Assembly (NCBI GenBank): GCA_965116925.1
Contig: OZ220744.1
Coordinates: 5,984,001-6,048,000, forward strand
Source: Candidatus Poribacteria bacterium
Lineage (GTDB): Bacteria > Poribacteria > WGA-4E > PCPOR2b
Length of the DNA stretch: 64,000 nucleotides
Direction of reading: 5' to 3'
Shown here: in pieces, positions 32,072 to 62,420 of the stretch
Layout: every line of letters starts with the position of its first letter
How positions within the stretch are numbered: position 1 is the first letter of the stretch
Program-made: the position numbers and the translations under genes
The notes under the pieces: generated by a model
Told to the model about the DNA's origin: nothing
Seen by the model: the letters and a program-made list of their open reading frames with translations, nothing else
Database searches by the model: none

Positions 32072-33100
32072 ATGTATAAAGAAAATGGGCAAGAGATTTT
32101 TGTTGTTGACGGGCATATGCACTTTTGGGACGCCAACCCGGAAAACTGGCGCAATGAGTATGGCGAAGGTTGGATCCGCTGTTTCTACGATTTTCATACC
32201 GCCCTCAGCCCGGAAGAATATGTCTGGTCGTTTGAAAAGTATTGCAAATACGGTGAAGAGACGCTAGTTAACGATCTCTTTTCGGAGGGATACGTCGACG
32301 TTGCCATTCTCAACTCAACGTATCTGTACGAGTTTTATAAAAACGGATTTAATACCCACCAACAGAACAACGAGATCAAAGCGAAATATCCCGATCGTTT
32401 TATTCTCTGCGGTTCCTTCGATCCCAGAGCGGAGGAGGCCGGACTGGACGCGTTCCGGCAGATGGTAGAGGATTACCCGATTCAGGGACTCAAGCTCTAC
32501 ACCGCCGAATGGCGAAACGGCTCGAAAGGCTGGCGACTGAACGATCCGTGGGCTTACAAGTATTTTGAGCTCGCCGAGGAACTTGGGGTTAAAAATATCC
32601 ACGTTCACAAGGGACCGACGGTTTATCCTCTGAATCGTGACGCTTTTGATGTTGCTGATGTGGATTATGCCGCCACTGACTTTCCCAATCTCAACTTTAT
32701 CATTGAACATATTGGACTGCCACGGTTAGACGATTTCTGCTGGATCGCCACGCAGGAAAAGAACGTCTATGCCGGCATGTCGGTGGCAATGGCGTTCATC
32801 CACTCACGCCCGAAATATTTCGCCGAGATCGTTGCTAACCTGCTGTTTTGGTTAGGCGAGGATAAGATGATCTTTGGCAGCGACTATGCGATCTGGACGC
32901 CCAAGTGGTTGATTGAGAAGTTTATGGCACTTGAGTTGCCGGACGATATCAAAGAGGAATATGGGGTTGATCTTACACCAGAAGCCAAGCGCAAGGTCTT
33001 GGGTGAAAATGTCGCCGGTCTGTATGGGATTGACCTCTCCGCCCATCGCGAGAAACTGAGCCAAGATGAGATTGGCCTCAAACTTGCCGAGGGCGCATAA
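32072..33100 (+). CDS. Amidohydrolase-2 family metallo-hydrolase
   Basis: DGHMH, HVHKG, EHIGLP and FGSDY motifs. Confidence 0.9.
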   Translation: MYKENGQEIFVVDGHMHFWDANPENWRNEYGEGWIRCFYDFHTALSPEEYVWSFEKYCKYGEETLVNDLFSEGYVDVAILNSTYLYEFYKNGFNTHQQNNEIKAKYPDRFILCGSFDPRAEEAGLDAFRQMVEDYPIQGLKLYTAEWRNGSKGWRLNDPWAYKYFELAEELGVKNIHVHKGPTVYPLNRDAFDVADVDYAATDFPNLNFIIEHIGLPRLDDFCWIATQEKNVYAGMSVAMAFIHSRPKYFAEIVANLLFWLGEDKMIFGSDYAIWTPKWLIEKFMALELPDDIKEEYGVDLTPEAKRKVLGENVAGLYGIDLSAHREKLSQDEIGLKLAEGA

Positions 33101-33160
33101 AACAACACTGGAACTTGGAACCGTGCTATACCAACCCGATCATTACTGTGAGGGCTGCTC

Positions 33161-34270
33161 ATGATCGCTGCACATACTGATGTCGTTGGCAGCTTGCTCC
33201 GCCCATCTGAACTTCTCAGAGCGAGAAGTGAGGTTGCGACAGGCAAAATGACGCAAGCGGCGTTCAAAGCGATCGAAGATCAAGCGGTTGACGAAGCGGT
33301 TGCACTTCAGGAGGCGGTGGGCTTGGAGGTTGTGACCGATGGCGAGATGCGGCGGTTATCCTTCCAGAGCCAAATGACAGAAGCGGTCAGTGGTTTTGGA
33401 GAATATGATCTCGATGCGTTCCTCTGGGGTGATTGGCATGGTGACGAAGGTACGGGGAGTTTGAGCCTAGAACGCCCCAAAAGCTTGGGCGTTGTCGGCA
33501 AACTCACCCGCAAACGGCACCTCTCAACAGAGGAATTTATCTACCTGCGAGCGCGGACGAATCGTATACCGAAGATCACGTTGCCGAGTCCAAGCCTGTG
33601 GACAAACTTCTGGTCGCCAGAATACTCCACCCCCGCCTATCCCACGCTCGACAGTTTTCTTGCGGAGGTCGTTGACATTATGCGGGACGAGGTCGCTGAG
33701 TTAGTCCGGCTAGGTGCAACCTACATTCAACTTGATGCTCCCCATTATCCGTTGTTGCTCGATCCCAAAACGAGAACCTTCTACGAGGGACAAGGTTGGC
33801 GGCTTGATCAGTGGTTAGACCGGGGTATTGAGATGGATAACGCTGTGATTGGTGATTTTCCGGAGGTGACGTTCGGCTTTCATCTCTGACGCGGCAATCA
33901 GGGCAGCCGGTGGTTGGTCGAAGGGGGATACGATCTGATTGCCAAACCGATTTTTCGTGGCATCCGTGCCCAGCGTCTACTACTCGAGTACGACGATGAA
34001 CGCTCCGGTTCGTTTGAACCGTTGCAGGCGATTCCCGATGACAAGGTCGCTGTTTTAGGGTTGGTCACGACGAAAACGCCGCGCCGAGAAACGCCGGAAG
34101 TACTCACTGCGCGTATCAAGGAAGCCAGCCAATTTGTGCCGCTAGAACGGCTTGCCTTGAGCCCGCAGTGTGGTTTTGCTACTTCGGTCCTTGGCAATCG
34201 CATTACGGCAGAAGATCAGAGACGTAAATTGTCGGTGGTTGTTGAGACTGCTAGAACGGTGTGGGACTAA
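33161..34270 (+). CDS. Cobalamin-independent methionine synthase II (MetE C-terminal-like) family protein; candidate selenoprotein (Sec243)
   Basis: ORFs 33161-33889 and 33914-34270 share one frame. Read through TGA 33887-33889 the protein is 369 aa with VVGSLLRP, TDGEMRR, IQLDAP, FHL-U-RGN (family H-x-C-R-G-N), LEYD and SPQCGF. Confidence 0.85.
33890..33953 (+). promoter_or_regulatory. SECIS-like hairpin after the in-frame UGA of the MetE-like gene
   Basis: CAGCC-GGT-GGTTG stem-loop with a G-containing loop about 20 nt after UGA, enclosed by GGCAATCAG...CTGATTGCC. Confidence 0.6.
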
Positions 34271-34298
34271 ACTGAAAAATTTTTGAAGGAGGAGCGAC

Positions 34299-34505
34299 AT
34301 GGCACAAACGCCTAAAAACCATCAAACCCGAACCGAATCTATTGGCAAATGGACGGTTCGGATTAGATCTTACCAGCTCGGTGATGCGTATATCTGCACT
34401 GTGGACAATGTAAGCCCCGGTGCTGTCATCGCCCGGTCTACGGCTGCAACCCGTGCTGATGCGGAATCCGAGGCGTTGGAACAGGCGAAAGCCGCGATGG
34501 CATAA
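34299..34505 (+). CDS. Small hypothetical protein in the selenium cluster
   Basis: AAGGAGGAG RBS, ATG start, 68 aa containing YICTVDNVSPGAVIAR. Confidence 0.75.
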   Translation: MAQTPKNHQTRTESIGKWTVRIRSYQLGDAYICTVDNVSPGAVIARSTAATRADAESEALEQAKAAMA

Positions 34506-34597
34506 TTGTGTTATACGAGATTAAAGAAACCGAGTTTTTTCTTGAAAACTCGGTTTCTGATGTATTTGTAGAAGATACGAAAGTTGGGAGCGATAGA

Positions 34598-35659
34598 ATG
34601 AACCTGAATAAATTATCACGAAAACATACCCTCACAAGTCTGGCAAAAACATGTGGGTGAGCGGCGAAAGTCAGTCCAGTTGGACTGGGAGAACTGCTCG
34701 CCAAATTGCCGAAGAAAAACGACCCCAATCTGCTCGTTGGATTTGAAACTAGCGACGACGCGGGCATCTACCGTCTCAACGATGAGATGGCTTTAGTTAC
34801 GACCGCTGATTTCATCACGCCGCCGGTGGATGACCCGTATCTGTTCGGTCAAATTGCTGCCGCCAATTCAATCAGCGATATTTATGCGATGGGCGGAAAA
34901 CCTGTGACCTGTCTGAATTTGGTGGGTTTTCCAGCGGATAAATTGGATCCAGAAATCCTGCACGGAATTGTCGAAGGTGCGCTGAGTAAAATCACTGAAT
35001 CTGGCGCAGTCTTGGCGGGTGGCCATACGACCGATGATGAGGAACCGAAATTTGGGCTGTCGGTCACTGGAATTGTGCATCCGGACAACTATTGGCGGAA
35101 CGTCGGTGCAGAGCCGGGAGATGTCCTGATCTTGACAAAACCGATCGGCAGTGGCGTGATTTTTAACGCCAACCTGAAAAATTGGGTGTCAGACCAAGCG
35201 TTAGACGAATGTATAGGGGCTATCACGACGCTCAATAAGGGGGCGGCGGCGGTTATGGCTGGGTTTGACATCCATGCGGTGACGGACATCACCGGATTCG
35301 GATTGGGAGGTCATGCCTTGGAAATGGCAGAAGGGTCGGACGTGACTTTGGAGATTCGCACCGACGACGTGCCGATTATGCGTGAAGCACTGGAGATGTA
35401 TCAGAAAGGGATGCGGACCGGTGTCAACGCCGCCAATCGAGCGTTGATTGAAGAGTCCACACGTTTTGAAAAATCACTTCCTGCATGGCATGAGGAGATC
35501 TTTGTTGATCCGCAGACCAGCGGTGGACTGTTGATGTCTGTGCCAGCTGCTCAAAGCGAGTCACTGTTGGCGGCTTTACACAATGGTGGTGTGACAGAGG
35601 CACAGATTATCGGAGTTGTGAAGTCTTTTGTCAAACCGAACTATCTTGTTTTTGTATAA
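34598..35659 (+). CDS. selD: Selenophosphate synthetase, Sec-containing form
   Basis: From ATG 34598: MNLNKLSRKHTLTSLAKTCG-U(TGA 34658)-AAKVSP, in frame with the 34706 ORF; DDAGIY, DFITP, ANSISDIYAMGG, TDITGFG and DPQTSGGLL motifs. Confidence 0.95.
34671..34688 (+). promoter_or_regulatory. SECIS-like hairpin after the selD UGA
   Basis: TCAGTCC-AGTT-GGACTGG; loop 18-21 nt after UGA. Confidence 0.7.
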
Positions 35660-35662
35660 ACC

Positions 35663-36613
35663 ATGAAAATTTGCTTAATTACCCCTGCCCCAACATACTC
35701 CCGAAAAGGTAATCGTGTGACTGCCCTTCGGTGGGCCCGCATCTTACGAGAACTGGGACACCGTGTCGTTATTGCAGAGGAGTATCAGGGAGAGCGATGC
35801 GACGTGCTGGTCGCACTCCATGCCCGGCGCAGCCACGCCTCCATTGTGCATTTCCGCCATAAACACCCAGAGCTGCCCCTTATTCTTGCCTTGACTGGAA
35901 CAGATCTCTACGGCGATATCCATACGGATGCATCAGCCCAAGAATCTCTGGAGATGGCGGATCGCTTCATTCTATTACAGCCCGCAGGCATCGAAGAACT
36001 TTCAGAACGTCTGCGCCACAAAGCGTGGGTAATCTACCAATCGATAACAGCACCGCCGGGGCAATTTGTTCCAAAGAAGAGCGTTTTCGAGTTGTGTGTG
36101 TTGGGGCATCTGCGTCCTGTGAAGGACCCATTTCGTACTGCGATGGCTTCCCGACAACTGCCTCCATCATCCCGAATTCAGGTGGTACATGTTGGGGGGG
36201 CACTCACCGACGACATGAGAGTACAGGCAGACGCTGAAGTCGCCGCCAATCCACGTTACCGCTGGTTGGGAGAACTCCCGCGCTGGCGGGCGCTCCGTGT
36301 TCTCGCACGCAGTCGGGTTCTTGTGCTGACCTCGCAGATGGAGGGAGGGGCAAATGCAGTTTGCGAAGCGATTGCGTGTTCTGTCCCCGTCATCTCATCG
36401 CGGATATCTGGCTCGATCGGTCTTTTAGGGAGGGATTATCCGGGATACTTTCCGGTGGGAGATACACAGGCGTTGACGGACCTACTCACGCGCCTTGAGA
36501 TGGACACCGCATTTTATGATACACTCAAAGCGTGGTGTGAAGGATTAAAGCCGATTGTTGATCCTGACCGTGAACGTCAGAGCTGGAAACGTCTGCTACA
36601 GGATTTGCAATAG
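35663..36613 (+). CDS. senB: SenB-type (TIGR04348-like) selenosugar synthase glycosyltransferase
   Basis: GNRVTALRW, ALHARRS, LTGTDLY, GHLRPVKDPF, EGGAN and GLLGRDYPGYF motifs; 3 nt downstream of selD. Confidence 0.85.
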   Translation: MKICLITPAPTYSRKGNRVTALRWARILRELGHRVVIAEEYQGERCDVLVALHARRSHASIVHFRHKHPELPLILALTGTDLYGDIHTDASAQESLEMADRFILLQPAGIEELSERLRHKAWVIYQSITAPPGQFVPKKSVFELCVLGHLRPVKDPFRTAMASRQLPPSSRIQVVHVGGALTDDMRVQADAEVAANPRYRWLGELPRWRALRVLARSRVLVLTSQMEGGANAVCEAIACSVPVISSRISGSIGLLGRDYPGYFPVGDTQALTDLLTRLEMDTAFYDTLKAWCEGLKPIVDPDRERQSWKRLLQDLQ

Positions 36614-36638
36614 CAGTAAAAAGAAGGTGGAGGCAGCT

Positions 36639-37610
36639 ATGAAAAGGGTTGGAGTTGTAGGTGCCGGCGCGTGGGGGACTGCGCTTGCGATCACGGCGGC
36701 GCGGGCAGGTAGTGAAGTCACCCTATGGGCACGAGAGCCGGAGGTTGTGGCGTCTATCAACGGACGGCAAGAAAATGAGATGTTCCTGCCCGGTATCAAG
36801 CTGCCCGACACTGTCCATGCGGTCAACGATTTGGAGGCGATGTTGGCACAGGACGCGCTATTGATGGTGGCACCCGCCCAATATGTGGGGAGCACCTGTG
36901 AGGGTCTGGCTTCAGCCGGTTTAGATGCTTCTCTCCCTATAGTTATCTGCAGCAAGGGGATAGAACAGGACAGCTTGAAGCTAATGAGCGAAGTTGTGGC
37001 GGAGCATTTTTCCAATCCGCTGGCGGTACTGAGCGGACCCACCTTTGCAATTGAAGTGGCAAAGGGGCTGCCTGCTTCGGTTACGCTTGCATGTGGTGAT
37101 TCCGAACTTGGACAAAAACTAGCGCAGTTGGTAGTGCACCCAAAATTCAGTGTCCATCATTCCGACGATGTGATTGGTCCCCAGATCTGTGGTGCTATGA
37201 AAAACGTCATTGCCATCGCTTGCGGTATTGTTGAAGGCAAAGGACTCGGAGAAAGTGCGAAAGCGGCGTTGATCACCGAAGGATTGGCGGAGATAAGCCA
37301 ACTATGCGTTGCGAAGGGCGGCAAAACTGAAACAGCGATGGGGCTATGCGGTCTTGGCGACCTGATTCTGACCTGTAACAGTCACACCTCACGCAATATG
37401 TCTTTAGGCTATGCTTTAGGACAAGGAGAGACGTTAGCGGAGATTTTGAGCGATCGAGTGAGCGTTGCCGAAGGGGTTGCGTCGTCCAACGCTGTGGCAG
37501 GGTTGGCAGCCCAGGTGGGCATTCGGCTGCGGATCTGTGGGATCGTTGACCGGATTGTACGAGGCGATGCAGAGGGCGATCAGATGCTCTCGGCACTTGT
37601 TCAGGAATAA
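36639..37610 (+). CDS. gpsA: NAD(P)H-dependent glycerol-3-phosphate dehydrogenase
   Basis: GAGAWGTALA, CSKGIE, SGPTFA, KNVIAIA and GDLILTC...SRN motifs; ATG 36639 after GGAGG. Confidence 0.93.
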   Translation: MKRVGVVGAGAWGTALAITAARAGSEVTLWAREPEVVASINGRQENEMFLPGIKLPDTVHAVNDLEAMLAQDALLMVAPAQYVGSTCEGLASAGLDASLPIVICSKGIEQDSLKLMSEVVAEHFSNPLAVLSGPTFAIEVAKGLPASVTLACGDSELGQKLAQLVVHPKFSVHHSDDVIGPQICGAMKNVIAIACGIVEGKGLGESAKAALITEGLAEISQLCVAKGGKTETAMGLCGLGDLILTCNSHTSRNMSLGYALGQGETLAEILSDRVSVAEGVASSNAVAGLAAQVGIRLRICGIVDRIVRGDAEGDQMLSALVQE

Positions 37611-37614
37611 AAAG

Positions 37615-37917
37615 ATGCAAATACCCCAACCATTGACCCTTGACGAAATTCCCGAAGATGAGCAAGAAGCACTCCTGACAAAGGTTGCCACGGAGATCGT
37701 GAGACGGCGCCTGACCGTGCCTGCGATTTTATTCCTTGAAACTTGTAAACCCATTAACTTTATCGGTAGTCAAATGCTTATTGCACTTAACCCTTTTGTG
37801 ACTTCAATTTTTAATACCGCTGAATACCAGAAATTTGCCCTGATAATCGAAAAGGATGCAAATGTTGAATTACTGACTCAACTCATTGAAAAATTAGACG
37901 GAGAGGAGAAAAAGTAG
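37615..37917 (+). CDS. Conserved hypothetical protein
   Basis: ATG 37615 just after the gpsA stop; RRLTVPAILFLETCKP motif; 1 nt before the next gene. Confidence 0.7.
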   Translation: MQIPQPLTLDEIPEDEQEALLTKVATEIVRRRLTVPAILFLETCKPINFIGSQMLIALNPFVTSIFNTAEYQKFALIIEKDANVELLTQLIEKLDGEEKK

Positions 37918-41177: not shown

Positions 41178-42011
41178 TTGACGATGCCCATTATGGATGC
41201 GCTGCCGGATATGAAACGAGAACTCAAATTCTTTCCGGTTGAGAATGAAAATCCCCAAAAACTGACAGCGGAACAGATTCGTCAGTTCAACGAAAAGGGT
41301 TATATCTTTCCGTTAGATGTATTTACAGAAGAAGAGATAACAGCAAACCGAGCGTATTTCGATCGGATTATGGGGATAGCAAAGGCAGCCGGTTTGAACA
41401 GCTATTCGATCAACGGTTGGCATCCCACCTGTCGGGGGATTTACGATCTGGCGTTGGACGACCGCATCCTCGATTATGTGCAGGATCTACTCGGTGAGGA
41501 CCTGATCTGCACGATGACCCACTATTTCTGTAAGGAGCCGGGCGATACGAAACAGGTCACTTGGCACCAAGACGCCTCCTACTGGCCCCTGACCCCTAGC
41601 AAGGTGGTAACAGTTTGGTTGGCAATTGATGATGCAGATGAAGAGAATAGCGCGATGAAGGTTATCCCCGGATCTCATCTAGGCGGACAGATTCCCTTTG
41701 AGCACAGCACAGCGGCGGAAAATAATGTTCTTGGTCAGTCGGTACATCAGGCAGAGGATTATGGAGAGGCACCTGTTGCTTTTGAGATGAAGGCGGGGCA
41801 GGTATCGCTACATACCGATCTGTTGCTACACGGGTCGGATCCGAATAACTCGAATCGTCGGCGTTGCGGTCTCACCCTGCGCTATTTTCCACCGGATGTG
41901 CGCGGGCGGGATCCGAGACACGGTTCAGGCATCATCTGTCGTGGAGGCGACAGCGAGGGCTATTGGCAGCACATTCCAAGACCCGAAGGCGACCAGATCC
42001 GGAGGATATAA
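41178..42011 (+). CDS. Phytanoyl-CoA dioxygenase (PhyH) family protein
   Basis: WHQD, VIPGSH and HGS...RR motifs. Confidence 0.9.
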   Translation: MTMPIMDALPDMKRELKFFPVENENPQKLTAEQIRQFNEKGYIFPLDVFTEEEITANRAYFDRIMGIAKAAGLNSYSINGWHPTCRGIYDLALDDRILDYVQDLLGEDLICTMTHYFCKEPGDTKQVTWHQDASYWPLTPSKVVTVWLAIDDADEENSAMKVIPGSHLGGQIPFEHSTAAENNVLGQSVHQAEDYGEAPVAFEMKAGQVSLHTDLLLHGSDPNNSNRRRCGLTLRYFPPDVRGRDPRHGSGIICRGGDSEGYWQHIPRPEGDQIRRI

Positions 42012-42226
42012 GCTTCAATCAACACAGGACCGCTTCTAAAGGATGTTAGTTGTTGCTAGCTGAAATTAACCGCAGAGACGCAGAGTACACAGAGTTTTTA
42101 AGGGATAGGATTTATGTCAGATTGTAGGGAACGCAGATCTGCGTTCCCTACTCATCTTAGAAAGGAACATAGGTAGGAAGATAGGGCTTGACTAGGTCCT
42201 TGACTCAGATAAACAAGGAGAAAGAT

Positions 42227-43048
42227 ATGCCAGTTTTAAGCGCAGCAGATATAGATTTTTGGGAAGAGAACGGCTACGTTGTTGTTCACGACGCGGTGCC
42301 GCCGGAGAATTGTAAGGCAGCCGAGCGTGCCATCTGGGATTTCCTCGAAATGGATACAGACGATCCAGAGACGTGGTATCCAGACCCGCCGCGCCGCGGC
42401 ATCATGGTCGAGATTTATCAGCATCAAGCGTTATGGAATAATCGCCAATATCCTCGAATCCACCAAGCCTTTTCTGAGATTTGGGATACGGAAAAACTAT
42501 GGGTTAGCTTTGATCGCGGCAGCTTGAACCCACCCGAACGGGATGACTATAAGTTTCCGGGCCCCCACCTACATTGGGATATGTCGTTGGATATGCCGGT
42601 TCGACTCAAGGTGCAGGGGGTATTATACCTGACCGATACACCCGGCAATCAAGGAGCATTCACCTGTATACCGGGATTTCACCATAAACTGGAGGATTGG
42701 CTCAACGATCTGCCCAAAGATGCGGATCCGCGGCAGGTTATTAAGCAGAGAGGTGCCGATGCCGTGCCGGTTGCGGGGAAAGCGGGGGATCTGGTCATCT
42801 GGCACAGTGCCCTGCCACACGGGAGCAGCCCGAACAGCGGCGATCGCCCTCGAATCGTGCAGTATATCACCATGTCGCCGGCACCGGAGGACAATGAGGA
42901 AGGGCGTCAGAAACGGATCGCCGGTTGGCAAGAACGGCTGACAGGGCTGGGCAAGGAGGAGAAGAAGAAGGAACACTTCCAGGGCAAGACAGCGGAATTG
43001 ACGCCGCTCGGACGCAAACTTTTGGGACTAGATTCTTGGGAAGAGTGA
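42227..43048 (+). CDS. PhyH family dioxygenase
   Basis: HWD, PGFH and HGSSPN motifs; ATG 42227 after AAGGAG. Confidence 0.9.
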   Translation: MPVLSAADIDFWEENGYVVVHDAVPPENCKAAERAIWDFLEMDTDDPETWYPDPPRRGIMVEIYQHQALWNNRQYPRIHQAFSEIWDTEKLWVSFDRGSLNPPERDDYKFPGPHLHWDMSLDMPVRLKVQGVLYLTDTPGNQGAFTCIPGFHHKLEDWLNDLPKDADPRQVIKQRGADAVPVAGKAGDLVIWHSALPHGSSPNSGDRPRIVQYITMSPAPEDNEEGRQKRIAGWQERLTGLGKEEKKKEHFQGKTAELTPLGRKLLGLDSWEE

Positions 43049-61676: not shown

Positions 61677-62420
61677 CTACTTCAATCGCAGAATCTCACG
61701 CTGTGCCTCTGACAGAGCATCCATGACATGGTCGCTAAAGACTAAGCTCTGACCACCCCAATCGGGCATGTAGCCAATGCTGTAACAGTAATACAGGGTC
61801 CGGCGTGGACGTTTCGAGGTGTTTACGAACGAGCCGTGTGTCAAAGCTTCGGTGAAGATAATGGCGTCGCCTGCTTTTGCGGGGATGGGTGTCAACACCG
61901 GATTTTCTTCAGGGTGGTTGCCCCAGGGCCTGACAAAGTTGCTCTTGTGCGCCCCCGGAATGACGGCAAAGCAGCCGTCCTCAACATCGCAATCCAGCAA
62001 CGGAAACACAGCTTTGGTCAACGTCGAGACCATTTGACCGTTGCGGCAATGGTACTGACATTTCGGGATGATAGGGGTGCCGTTCATGTGCAGCCCCGTA
62101 TAACCACCACCCCACCGGTAAATTGTGTAGGTATGGTTGAGCCGGTACGGACCGCCGGTCACACCTTCGACAACATCCAATACTTCAGGAAGATCGATCA
62201 ATGGATTGAAAACGGGATCGGCTTCGAGGATATTGGAGATATAGAGTTCCTTTTCTGTCTTTGGTGTGCCGAGGCAGAGCGGCGGCGGATAGTCCTCCGG
62301 CGGCATATCTTCCAAGGGGTTTAATGCCTTGTTGCACGCTTCTACTACAGATTGAGGCACTACATCTTCCAAGACTATGTAGCCTTGCAGGTCAAATAGA
62401 TATTTTTGTTCTTCTGTCAC
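61677..62420 (-). CDS. PhyH family dioxygenase
   Basis: FDLQGY, IPGAHKSN and THG...RR motifs. Confidence 0.85.
   Translation of the reverse strand: MTEEQKYLFDLQGYIVLEDVVPQSVVEACNKALNPLEDMPPEDYPPPLCLGTPKTEKELYISNILEADPVFNPLIDLPEVLDVVEGVTGGPYRLNHTYTIYRWGGGYTGLHMNGTPIIPKCQYHCRNGQMVSTLTKAVFPLLDCDVEDGCFAVIPGAHKSNFVRPWGNHPEENPVLTPIPAKAGDAIIFTEALTHGSFVNTSKRPRRTLYYCYSIGYMPDWGGQSLVFSDHVMDALSEAQREILRLK

Follow-up and report, generated by a model that had tools for sequence, protein, structure and literature searches.

We analysed a stretch of 64,000 nucleotides from a Candidatus Poribacteria bacterium (hereafter the window), covering positions 5984001-6048000 of contig C1 of genome G000, a single-contig genome of 6.47 Mb. 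On its + strand the window carries, co-oriented and in this order, a gene for a selenocysteine-containing relative of the methionine synthase MetE (the MetE-like gene), a 68-aa open reading frame (ORF; here orf68), the selenophosphate synthetase gene selD, also with an in-frame selenocysteine (Sec) codon, the selenosugar synthase gene senB and the glycerol-3-phosphate dehydrogenase gene gpsA. We consider it highly probable that the locus holds half of an already known pathway, that of selenoneine biosynthesis, which is complete in this genome but split, with senA and egtD placed elsewhere on the chromosome. A preliminary description of the window had suggested an undescribed selenometabolite pathway for want of a SenA. 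The gene order and orientation it gave, with senB 3 nt after selD, were confirmed, as was its observation that the 64 kb hold no EgtB/SenA-like gene. The new pathway itself was not supported, since senA and egtD are present on the same chromosome, senA and senB were found together in 45 of 45 senB-bearing Poribacteria genomes, and senA lies inside the cluster in a sister genus.

The search of the whole genome for SenA and EgtB homologues, which had been proposed with that description, gave 19 FGE-sulfatase matches and 29 EgtB-model matches, none of which fall inside the window, and found a bona fide senA at G000:C1:879420-880715. This gene encodes 431 aa and lies 5.14 Mb from the window cluster, or 1.33 Mb if the contig is circular. 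Its product scored 511.8 bits on the SenA equivalog NF041186 (cut-off 420) and 96-97.6 bits on the EgtB-related signature TIGR04373 (cut-off 71), and matched the EgtB model over its full length at a score just under the cut-off (340 of 360). The next gene, 175 nt past senA, is egtD (364.5 bits on TIGR03438, cut-off 290.9). EgtD makes hercynine, the substrate of SenA. Residues which separate the histidine-using OvsA (M, Q, A) from the hercynine-using SenA (Y, N, F/Y) are given in PMC11030361, and our alignment to 8UX5 covered 3 of its 17 motif positions; the senA product reads Y, N and F opposite Y401, N430 and F431 of OvsA-YNF. Because of these residues and the egtD neighbour, we assign the product as a SenA which is predicted to use hercynine. 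Directly upstream of senA (G000:C1:877955-879322) is the C-terminal part of a xanthine dehydrogenase-type molybdopterin oxidoreductase, which scored approximately 285 bits on XdhA-type models, under their cut-offs, and weakly matched models of selenium-dependent hydroxylases. A separate FGE-sulfatase-type match with an in-frame TGA (G000:C1:4780621-4781046, open frame of 164-168 aa) is a candidate for either another selenoprotein or a broken gene.

The identities of the genes in the window are clear from their families. SelD scored 375 bits on TIGR00476 (cut-off 125) and 329.5 bits on NF002098, and its Sec codon is placed in the motif KTCGUAAKV of the N-terminal glycine-rich loop, where SelD/SenC proteins have Sec or Cys. 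The longest selD frame with TGA read through begins at 34508; we took the ATG at 34598 as the start because the family match begins only at residue 42 and a GGGAG stands upstream of this ATG. A hairpin was found at 34671-34688, downstream of the selD TGA (z -2.06). SenB scored 402.6 bits on TIGR04348 (cut-off 300; model positions 1-309 of 310) and matched the solved SenB structures 8JJN, 8JJQ and 8FBX over its full length (residues 3-316, E 7.9e-58 to 1e-57). By family it is a selenosugar synthase, for which Se-glycosyltransferase activity on selenophosphate and a UDP-sugar is predicted. The gaps within the four-gene block from the MetE-like gene to senB are 28, 92 and 3 nt, the last lying between the selD stop, which ends at 35659, and senB. 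The gpsA product scored 365.1 bits on NF000942 (cut-off 257) and gpsA is outside the selenium gene set; its true start is probably past the senB stop, as the first 28 residues of the ORF are outside the family match, which runs from residue 29.

We examined the distribution of these genes in 176 Poribacteria genomes. SenB was found in 45 of them (44 over the cut-off, the last one being cut by a contig end) and senA was over its cut-off in the same 45 genomes, with a weaker EgtB-like match only in two further genomes. The window's genus is represented by 20 genomes, and each of them has senA at a distance from senB or on another contig and keeps the block of MetE-like gene, orf68, selD and senB; egtD adjoins senA in all three senA loci which were fetched from this genus. 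In the sister genus (G031) the MetE-like gene, senA, orf68, selD and senB form one co-oriented block, and in other genera senA abuts senB. The simplest history would be that the common ancestor of the two genera had the five-gene block and that the window's genus later relocated senA to a place beside egtD; the direction of this move is read from the outgroups, which have senA adjacent to senB, and not from a rooted tree. Our literature search found no paper naming both Poribacteria and selenoneine.

A wider survey covered 80 diverse senB loci from species genomes, 9 of which were of the type seen in the window's genus. At the 71 others, senA was within 10 kb in 60 (58 of these within approximately 1.2 kb), selD in 15 and egtD in 25, which leaves 11 loci without senA within 10 kb. 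The first paper on sen clusters (bioRxiv 10.1101/2022.04.13.486033) reports 827 three-gene sen clusters among 2,353 TIGR04348 genes, so a senB without a neighbouring senA is nothing unusual in print.

We propose that the two halves would work together as follows. SelD, as the sole selenophosphate synthetase, would supply selenophosphate both to selenocysteine insertion and to SenB; SenB, probably translated together with selD, would make the 1-seleno-sugar; EgtD would make hercynine; and SenA would join hercynine to the selenosugar to give selenoneine. The split would have arisen in the window's genus, when senA left an ancestral cluster of the order MetE-like gene, senA, orf68, selD, senB. 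The MetE-like product would be a methyltransferase of the zinc type, acting on a thiol or selenol, with Sec in place of one of its metal-binding Cys residues.

The closest described system is the sen cluster of Variovorax paradoxus (senA, senB and senC; Kayrouz et al., bioRxiv 10.1101/2022.04.13.486033), which shares with the genome studied here the three enzyme families and, in addition, EgtD. In both, selD is directly before senB, and the SenB of the window matches the solved enzyme of V. paradoxus from end to end. The present genome differs in that senA is 5.14 Mb away beside egtD and not within 5 kb, in that selD is itself a selenoprotein gene and the only selD, shared with selenocysteine synthesis, and in that a MetE-like selenoprotein gene and orf68 stand within the block. 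Separation of the genes of a selenometabolite pathway is already in print for ovoselenol: in PMC11030361 a senB/senC cassette is apart from the C-Se bond-forming enzyme OvsA on the same chromosome. The senA product of the present genome has its top score against the solved OvsA, but its discriminating residues are Y, N and F, of the SenA type, and not the M, Q and A of OvsA, and the neighbouring gene encodes EgtD, not an OvsM-type methyltransferase.

Several points weigh against the split selenoneine pathway. The production of selenoneine is predicted from the genes, and the pathway is complete at the level of the genome only: the published definition of a sen cluster (bioRxiv 10.1101/2022.04.13.486033) asks for an egtB homologue, TIGR04348 and selD within 5 kb, and the locus falls outside it. 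The putative SenA is called from its NCBIfam score, from three residues and from the presence of egtD next to it, and its top solved match is OvsA (341 bits), ahead of the SenA of V. paradoxus (264 bits). Four RNA libraries (from two studies, labelled sponge metagenome or metagenome) gave contigs which span all four genes of the block with 90-99% likeness, those in X5 and X6 as two long contigs broken at a palindrome between orf68 and selD, but such contigs are no proof of transcription, strand or operon structure. Lastly, a plain split pathway leaves unexplained why relatives of the MetE-like gene are close to senA or senB in other phyla.

We also considered that selD, senB and the MetE-like gene might make up a pathway which does without SenA and leads to a different selenium compound, for instance a selenosugar that has been methylated. 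The tight packing and shared orientation of the four genes, with the block conserved in 20 of 20 genomes of the genus, would fit such a pathway, as would the 11 of 71 senB loci outside the genus at which senA is not within 10 kb. We nevertheless regard it as very improbable, given that senA-egtD is kept in every genome of the window's genus, that senA sits inside the block in the sister genus and that senB was never found without senA in the 176 Poribacteria genomes.

Turning to the MetE-like gene, we take its in-frame TGA to be read as selenocysteine, a call which rests on conservation. U243 aligns with the invariant Cys of the motif HLCRGNQ in 12 of 12 full-length homologues, and the genome should be able to decode the codon: tRNA-Sec (identified as tRNA-SeC by ARAGORN), selB and selA lie side by side at 2373929-2377461, with selA and selB scoring 607.3 bits (cut-off 267.9) and 373.3 bits (cut-off 242.25) on their models. 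Since the window selD is the single selD in the genome, SelD must serve both selenoprotein synthesis and SenB. If the TGA were instead a true stop, the gene would be split or dead. Under translation table 11 the frame does break into ORFs of 242 and 118 aa, the 60-nt fold past the TGA is weak (z -1.42), with a short hairpin, and the Cys forms of the gene fold more stably over the same stretch. We consider this extremely improbable, because all 23 Poribacteria orthologues (78-100% identity) have TGA at this codon, as do two Acidobacteriota orthologues, because purifying selection is equal on the two sides of the codon (dN/dS, the ratio of nonsynonymous to synonymous substitution rates, of 0.06-0.13 past the TGA vs 0.07-0.11 before it in six usable comparisons), because the invariant second metal-binding Cys, C337, lies past the TGA, and because the selenocysteine machinery of the genome is complete. 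A seventh dN/dS comparison was used only past the TGA, as an indel had shifted the part before it out of register.

The type example of a bacterial selenoprotein gene with a UGA and a selenocysteine insertion sequence (SECIS) hairpin just downstream is E. coli fdhF. As in genes of this type, the UGA of the MetE-like gene is at the position of a catalytic or metal-binding Cys, Cys homologues exist, and selA, selB, selC and selD are present. A small hairpin, a candidate SECIS core, follows soon after the UGA, but it is short and its stem is encoded by the conserved peptide in the Cys forms too. Its loop codon differs between the two forms: CGG or CGT stands there in all 24 Sec forms, most of which are close kin, vs 10 of 80 Cys forms. 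An attempt to recognise a SECIS by folding energy was uninformative: the 45 nt past the codon gave a mean of -11.2 kcal/mol in Sec forms vs -18.4 kcal/mol in Cys forms, which says nothing here because the Cys forms come from G+C-richer DNA (0.70 vs 0.58).

The MetE-like protein passed the gathering score of Pfam Meth_synt_2 (PF01717; 59.1 bits, cut-off 21) and was under the cut-offs of the named methionine synthases (NF005085, 237.6 of 313; NF004875, 224.3 of 576). Its closest solved structure is 1YPX (E 1.8e-50) and it is 72-79% identical to full-length Cys-containing homologues of several phyla; the 12 aligned here, 73-79% identical to it, are from Chloroflexota, Nitrospirae, Alphaproteobacteria, Blastocatellia and others. 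We regard it as a Sec form of a widespread Cys-containing family. The MetE-type zinc-site ligands would be H241, U243 (Cys in 12 of 12 homologues) and the invariant C337, with metal binding being a prediction. In fold family and length it resembles the single-domain "cobalamin-independent methionine synthase II family" (1YPX from Listeria; NCBIfam PRK06520 and PRK06233), whose H-x-C and distal Cys metal-binding motifs are conserved in it, except that Sec takes the place of the H-x-C Cys. It belongs to neither the PRK06520 nor the PRK06233 subfamily, scoring under both NCBIfam cut-offs. To our knowledge, selenocysteine at a zinc-ligand position is unusual, and our literature search found no paper on a Sec-containing MetE-like family. 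No full-length MetH was found in the genome, only separate modules at 4268978-4281439 and 4018247-4019071, where individual ORFs of 272-361 aa match homocysteine-, pterin- and B12-binding and activation modules. Together they might make up either a methionine synthase in separate pieces or a set of corrinoid methyltransferase genes, and they neither support nor exclude a methionine-synthase role for the MetE-like enzyme.

We then compared the positions of the MetE-like gene and the sen genes across genomes. Of the 176 Poribacteria genomes, 23 have the gene, and these belong to four related genera; it was missing from 22 of the 45 sen-bearing genomes, so it is not required for selenoneine synthesis; in G029 it is on a different contig from senA and senB. 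From the senB side, an orthologue was within 10 kb at 3 of the 71 loci outside the window's genus (L125, L128 and L144), each time within 6 kb. The orthologues near sen genes in other phyla are 64-74% identical to the window protein. In Latescibacterota L125 and L128 these are Cys forms at 3.3 kb from senA (that of L128 with a frameshift), and in Acidobacteriota they are Sec (TGA) forms, one at 5.6 kb from senB (G176/L144) and one ending 63 nt upstream of senA (G311). The acidobacterial loci L109, L131 and L132 have a distant MetE paralogue (34-35%) directly upstream of senA. Sampling of 301 Acidobacteriota genomes gave senB in 21 (a count which includes the unpublished genome G229) and the MetE-like orthologue in 4 (G311, G176, G458 and G249), 3 of which also have senA or senB; in G458 the orthologue is on a different contig from the sen genes, and G249 is without sen genes. 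A further 80 metagenome loci of the family, all Cys forms since one search pattern spelled Cys, and 37 of them under 5 kb, had clear sen neighbours at 2 (L190, where the MetE-like gene is 11 nt past senA, and L200, where it is 2.5 kb past senA-egtD) and an egtD fragment at 1 (L211, at the contig edge).

Other genes adjoin the Cys forms tightly, although these stand among many unrelated genes: an MttB-family methyltransferase gene is 14 nt upstream in L183, permease + OpuAC betaine-binding fusions overlap by 4 nt in L200 and L211, and a HAL/PAL-family lyase is 3 nt downstream in L220. EgtU-type ergothioneine transporters are permease + OpuAC betaine-binding fusions, and ergothionase belongs to the HAL/PAL family. 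In the unrelated loci L190 (6871-8256) and L125 (2610-4004) a pyridine-nucleotide disulphide oxidoreductase of approximately 460 aa directly adjoins the Cys-form MetE-like gene near senA, and in L190 selD itself is fused behind such a domain (762 aa); a role as diselenide or disulphide reductase would fit these proteins.

In our reading, the MetE-like gene seldom lies near sen genes, yet does so above positional chance, in at least three phyla, with small numbers and relatives which are not independent. Linkage in other taxa, which had been raised in the preliminary description, was indeed found, with orthologues within 6 kb of senA or senB in two genomes each of Acidobacteriota and Latescibacterota and on a metagenome contig. 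Because of these orthologues, the MetE-like enzyme may have some tie to the sen genes, though as an accessory of selenoneine metabolism and not in place of SenA.

We lean slightly towards plain clustering of selenium-use genes, named as the simpler alternative in the preliminary description, in which the MetE-like gene is beside selD only as an inherited selenoprotein gene, without a metabolic tie. Members of this family are widespread, and most of them are not linked to sen genes; among the Poribacteria the gene is confined to 23 of 176 genomes in four related genera, and the window selD serves selenoprotein synthesis too. This leaves aside that Cys forms, which need no selenium, are also near senA or senB (L125, L128, L190 and L200), so the closeness is not merely one of selenoprotein genes gathering near selD; moreover, L144, L125 and L200 are without selD within 10 kb, which indicates that senA/senB, rather than selD, are the genes it lies close to. 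Those loci, with G311 and G176, would fit an enzyme that is an accessory of selenoneine or histidine-betaine metabolism, adding to the split selenoneine pathway rather than replacing it. It might methylate selenoneine or the selenosugar at the selenol, or transfer methyl groups between homocysteine and a betaine or corrinoid donor, feeding the three S-adenosylmethionine-dependent methylations of EgtD. The 3 of 4 orthologue-bearing Acidobacteriota with senA or senB, the distant paralogues directly upstream of senA in L109, L131 and L132 and the MttB-family, permease + OpuAC and HAL/PAL-family neighbours all point the same way. Such an accessory role is unlikely in our view, because clear sen genes were present at only 2 of 80 metagenome loci and an egtD fragment at 1 (37 of the 80 being under 5 kb), the orthologue was within 10 kb at only 3 of 71 senB loci outside the window's genus, unrelated genes intervene between it and the sen genes in L144 and L125, 22 of 45 sen-bearing Poribacteria are without the gene and G029 has it on a separate contig, and the numbers are small, with kin counted among them. 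We regard any functional tie of the MetE-like enzyme to the sen genes as doubtful.

Between the MetE-like gene and selD stands orf68, which we take to be a true gene. The other 19 genomes of the window's genus all have it, with 86-99% identity, and the sister genus has it with 76% identity; in both it is single-copy and always within this block. Its relatives form 168 representative clusters at E ≤ 1e-3, with all Atlas clusters unnamed, and no Pfam or NCBIfam match was found even at E 10. The predicted model is confident (predicted local distance difference test, pLDDT, 92.2) and has four strands and one helix; compared to the PDB with Foldseek, its best E was 0.088, so that no solved fold matched at E ≤ 0.001. 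A Pfam scan of 20 relatives left 17 without a match, and the other three had a rhodanese, a DUF11 or AAA domains before or beside the orf68-like part. The rhodanese domain (in P0321) is N-terminal, before the orf68-like part, and this fusion is no more than a hint that orf68 might take part in sulfur or selenium handling. That orf68 is a remnant of senA was ruled out (best blastp E 8.8).

The palindrome which follows orf68 has 15-bp perfect arms and a 4-nt loop (z -5.78). Counted over the whole genome, the half-site is present 106 times on one strand and 92 times on the other, and it is found again in relatives of the genus, so that the palindrome is one of approximately a hundred genome-wide copies and not a signal specific to this locus; it looks like a repetitive extragenic palindrome (REP)-like intergenic repeat. 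RNA-library and other contigs break at it. Predicted promoters and terminators in 32800-37800 (3 and 5 sites) were not in excess of shuffled sequences (3.5 and 5.0). Positions of the features are listed in Table 1.

Table 1 Features of the selenium gene locus, in positions of the window.
Feature	Position	Strand	Remarks
MetE-like gene	33161-34270	+	369 aa, Sec at residue 243; Pfam Meth_synt_2 match
In-frame TGA of MetE-like gene	33887-33889	+	U243 in motif H-L-U-R-G-N-Q
Hairpin CAGCC-GGU-GGUUG, candidate SECIS core	33904-33916	+	starts 15 nt past the MetE-like TGA
orf68	34299-34505	+	conserved small protein of an unnamed family
Perfect 15-bp palindrome	34525-34558		between orf68 and selD; copy of a genome-wide repeat
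selD (SenC role)	34598-35659	+	353 aa from ATG 34598; Sec codon 34658-34660
senB, selenosugar synthase	35663-36613	+	TIGR04348 match
gpsA, glycerol-3-phosphate dehydrogenase	36555-37610 (ORF)	+	NF000942 match

Among 41 further ORFs of the window which were scanned, no selenate transporter, YedE/YedF or other selenium gene was found. The window also has three PhyH-family dioxygenase genes (in 41178-43048 and 61677-62420) and several GFO/IDH/MocA oxidoreductase and enolase-superfamily genes, which are typical of carbohydrate-degrading sponge symbionts and have no relation to the selenium genes. Outside the Poribacteria, senB homologues of 55-60% identity in Planctomycetota and other records (L159, L160, L163-L167 and L170) are without senA, selD or egtD within 10 kb. 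If their whole genomes are also without senA and ovsA, these would be better sites than the window at which to look for SenA-independent uses of selenosugars.

These results place complete selenoneine gene sets in 45 of 176 sampled Poribacteria, which are sponge-associated by their run labels, and date a rearrangement by which a five-gene cluster kept by the sister genus appears to have been split in the window's genus. They also remove a false lead, in that a senB-selD pair without senA in 64 kb signals a new pathway only if the whole genome is without senA. The item of real value, and worth a test at the bench, is the Sec-containing MetE-like enzyme, as its repeated closeness to senA in three phyla hints at its substrate. 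There is a small chance that both the Sec and the Cys forms of this short zinc enzyme have a so far unrecognised accessory role in histidine-betaine selenol/thiol metabolism. The enzyme would then methylate selenoneine to Se-methylselenoneine, for which no named enzyme was found in the literature as far as our sources reach, or shuttle methyl groups between such betaines and homocysteine. The metal site would have adapted to such selenol/thiol chemistry by taking up Sec, and the footprint of this role would be seen, in unrelated phyla, in the repeated closeness to senA, betaine-type transporters, an MttB-family gene and a HAL/PAL-family lyase.

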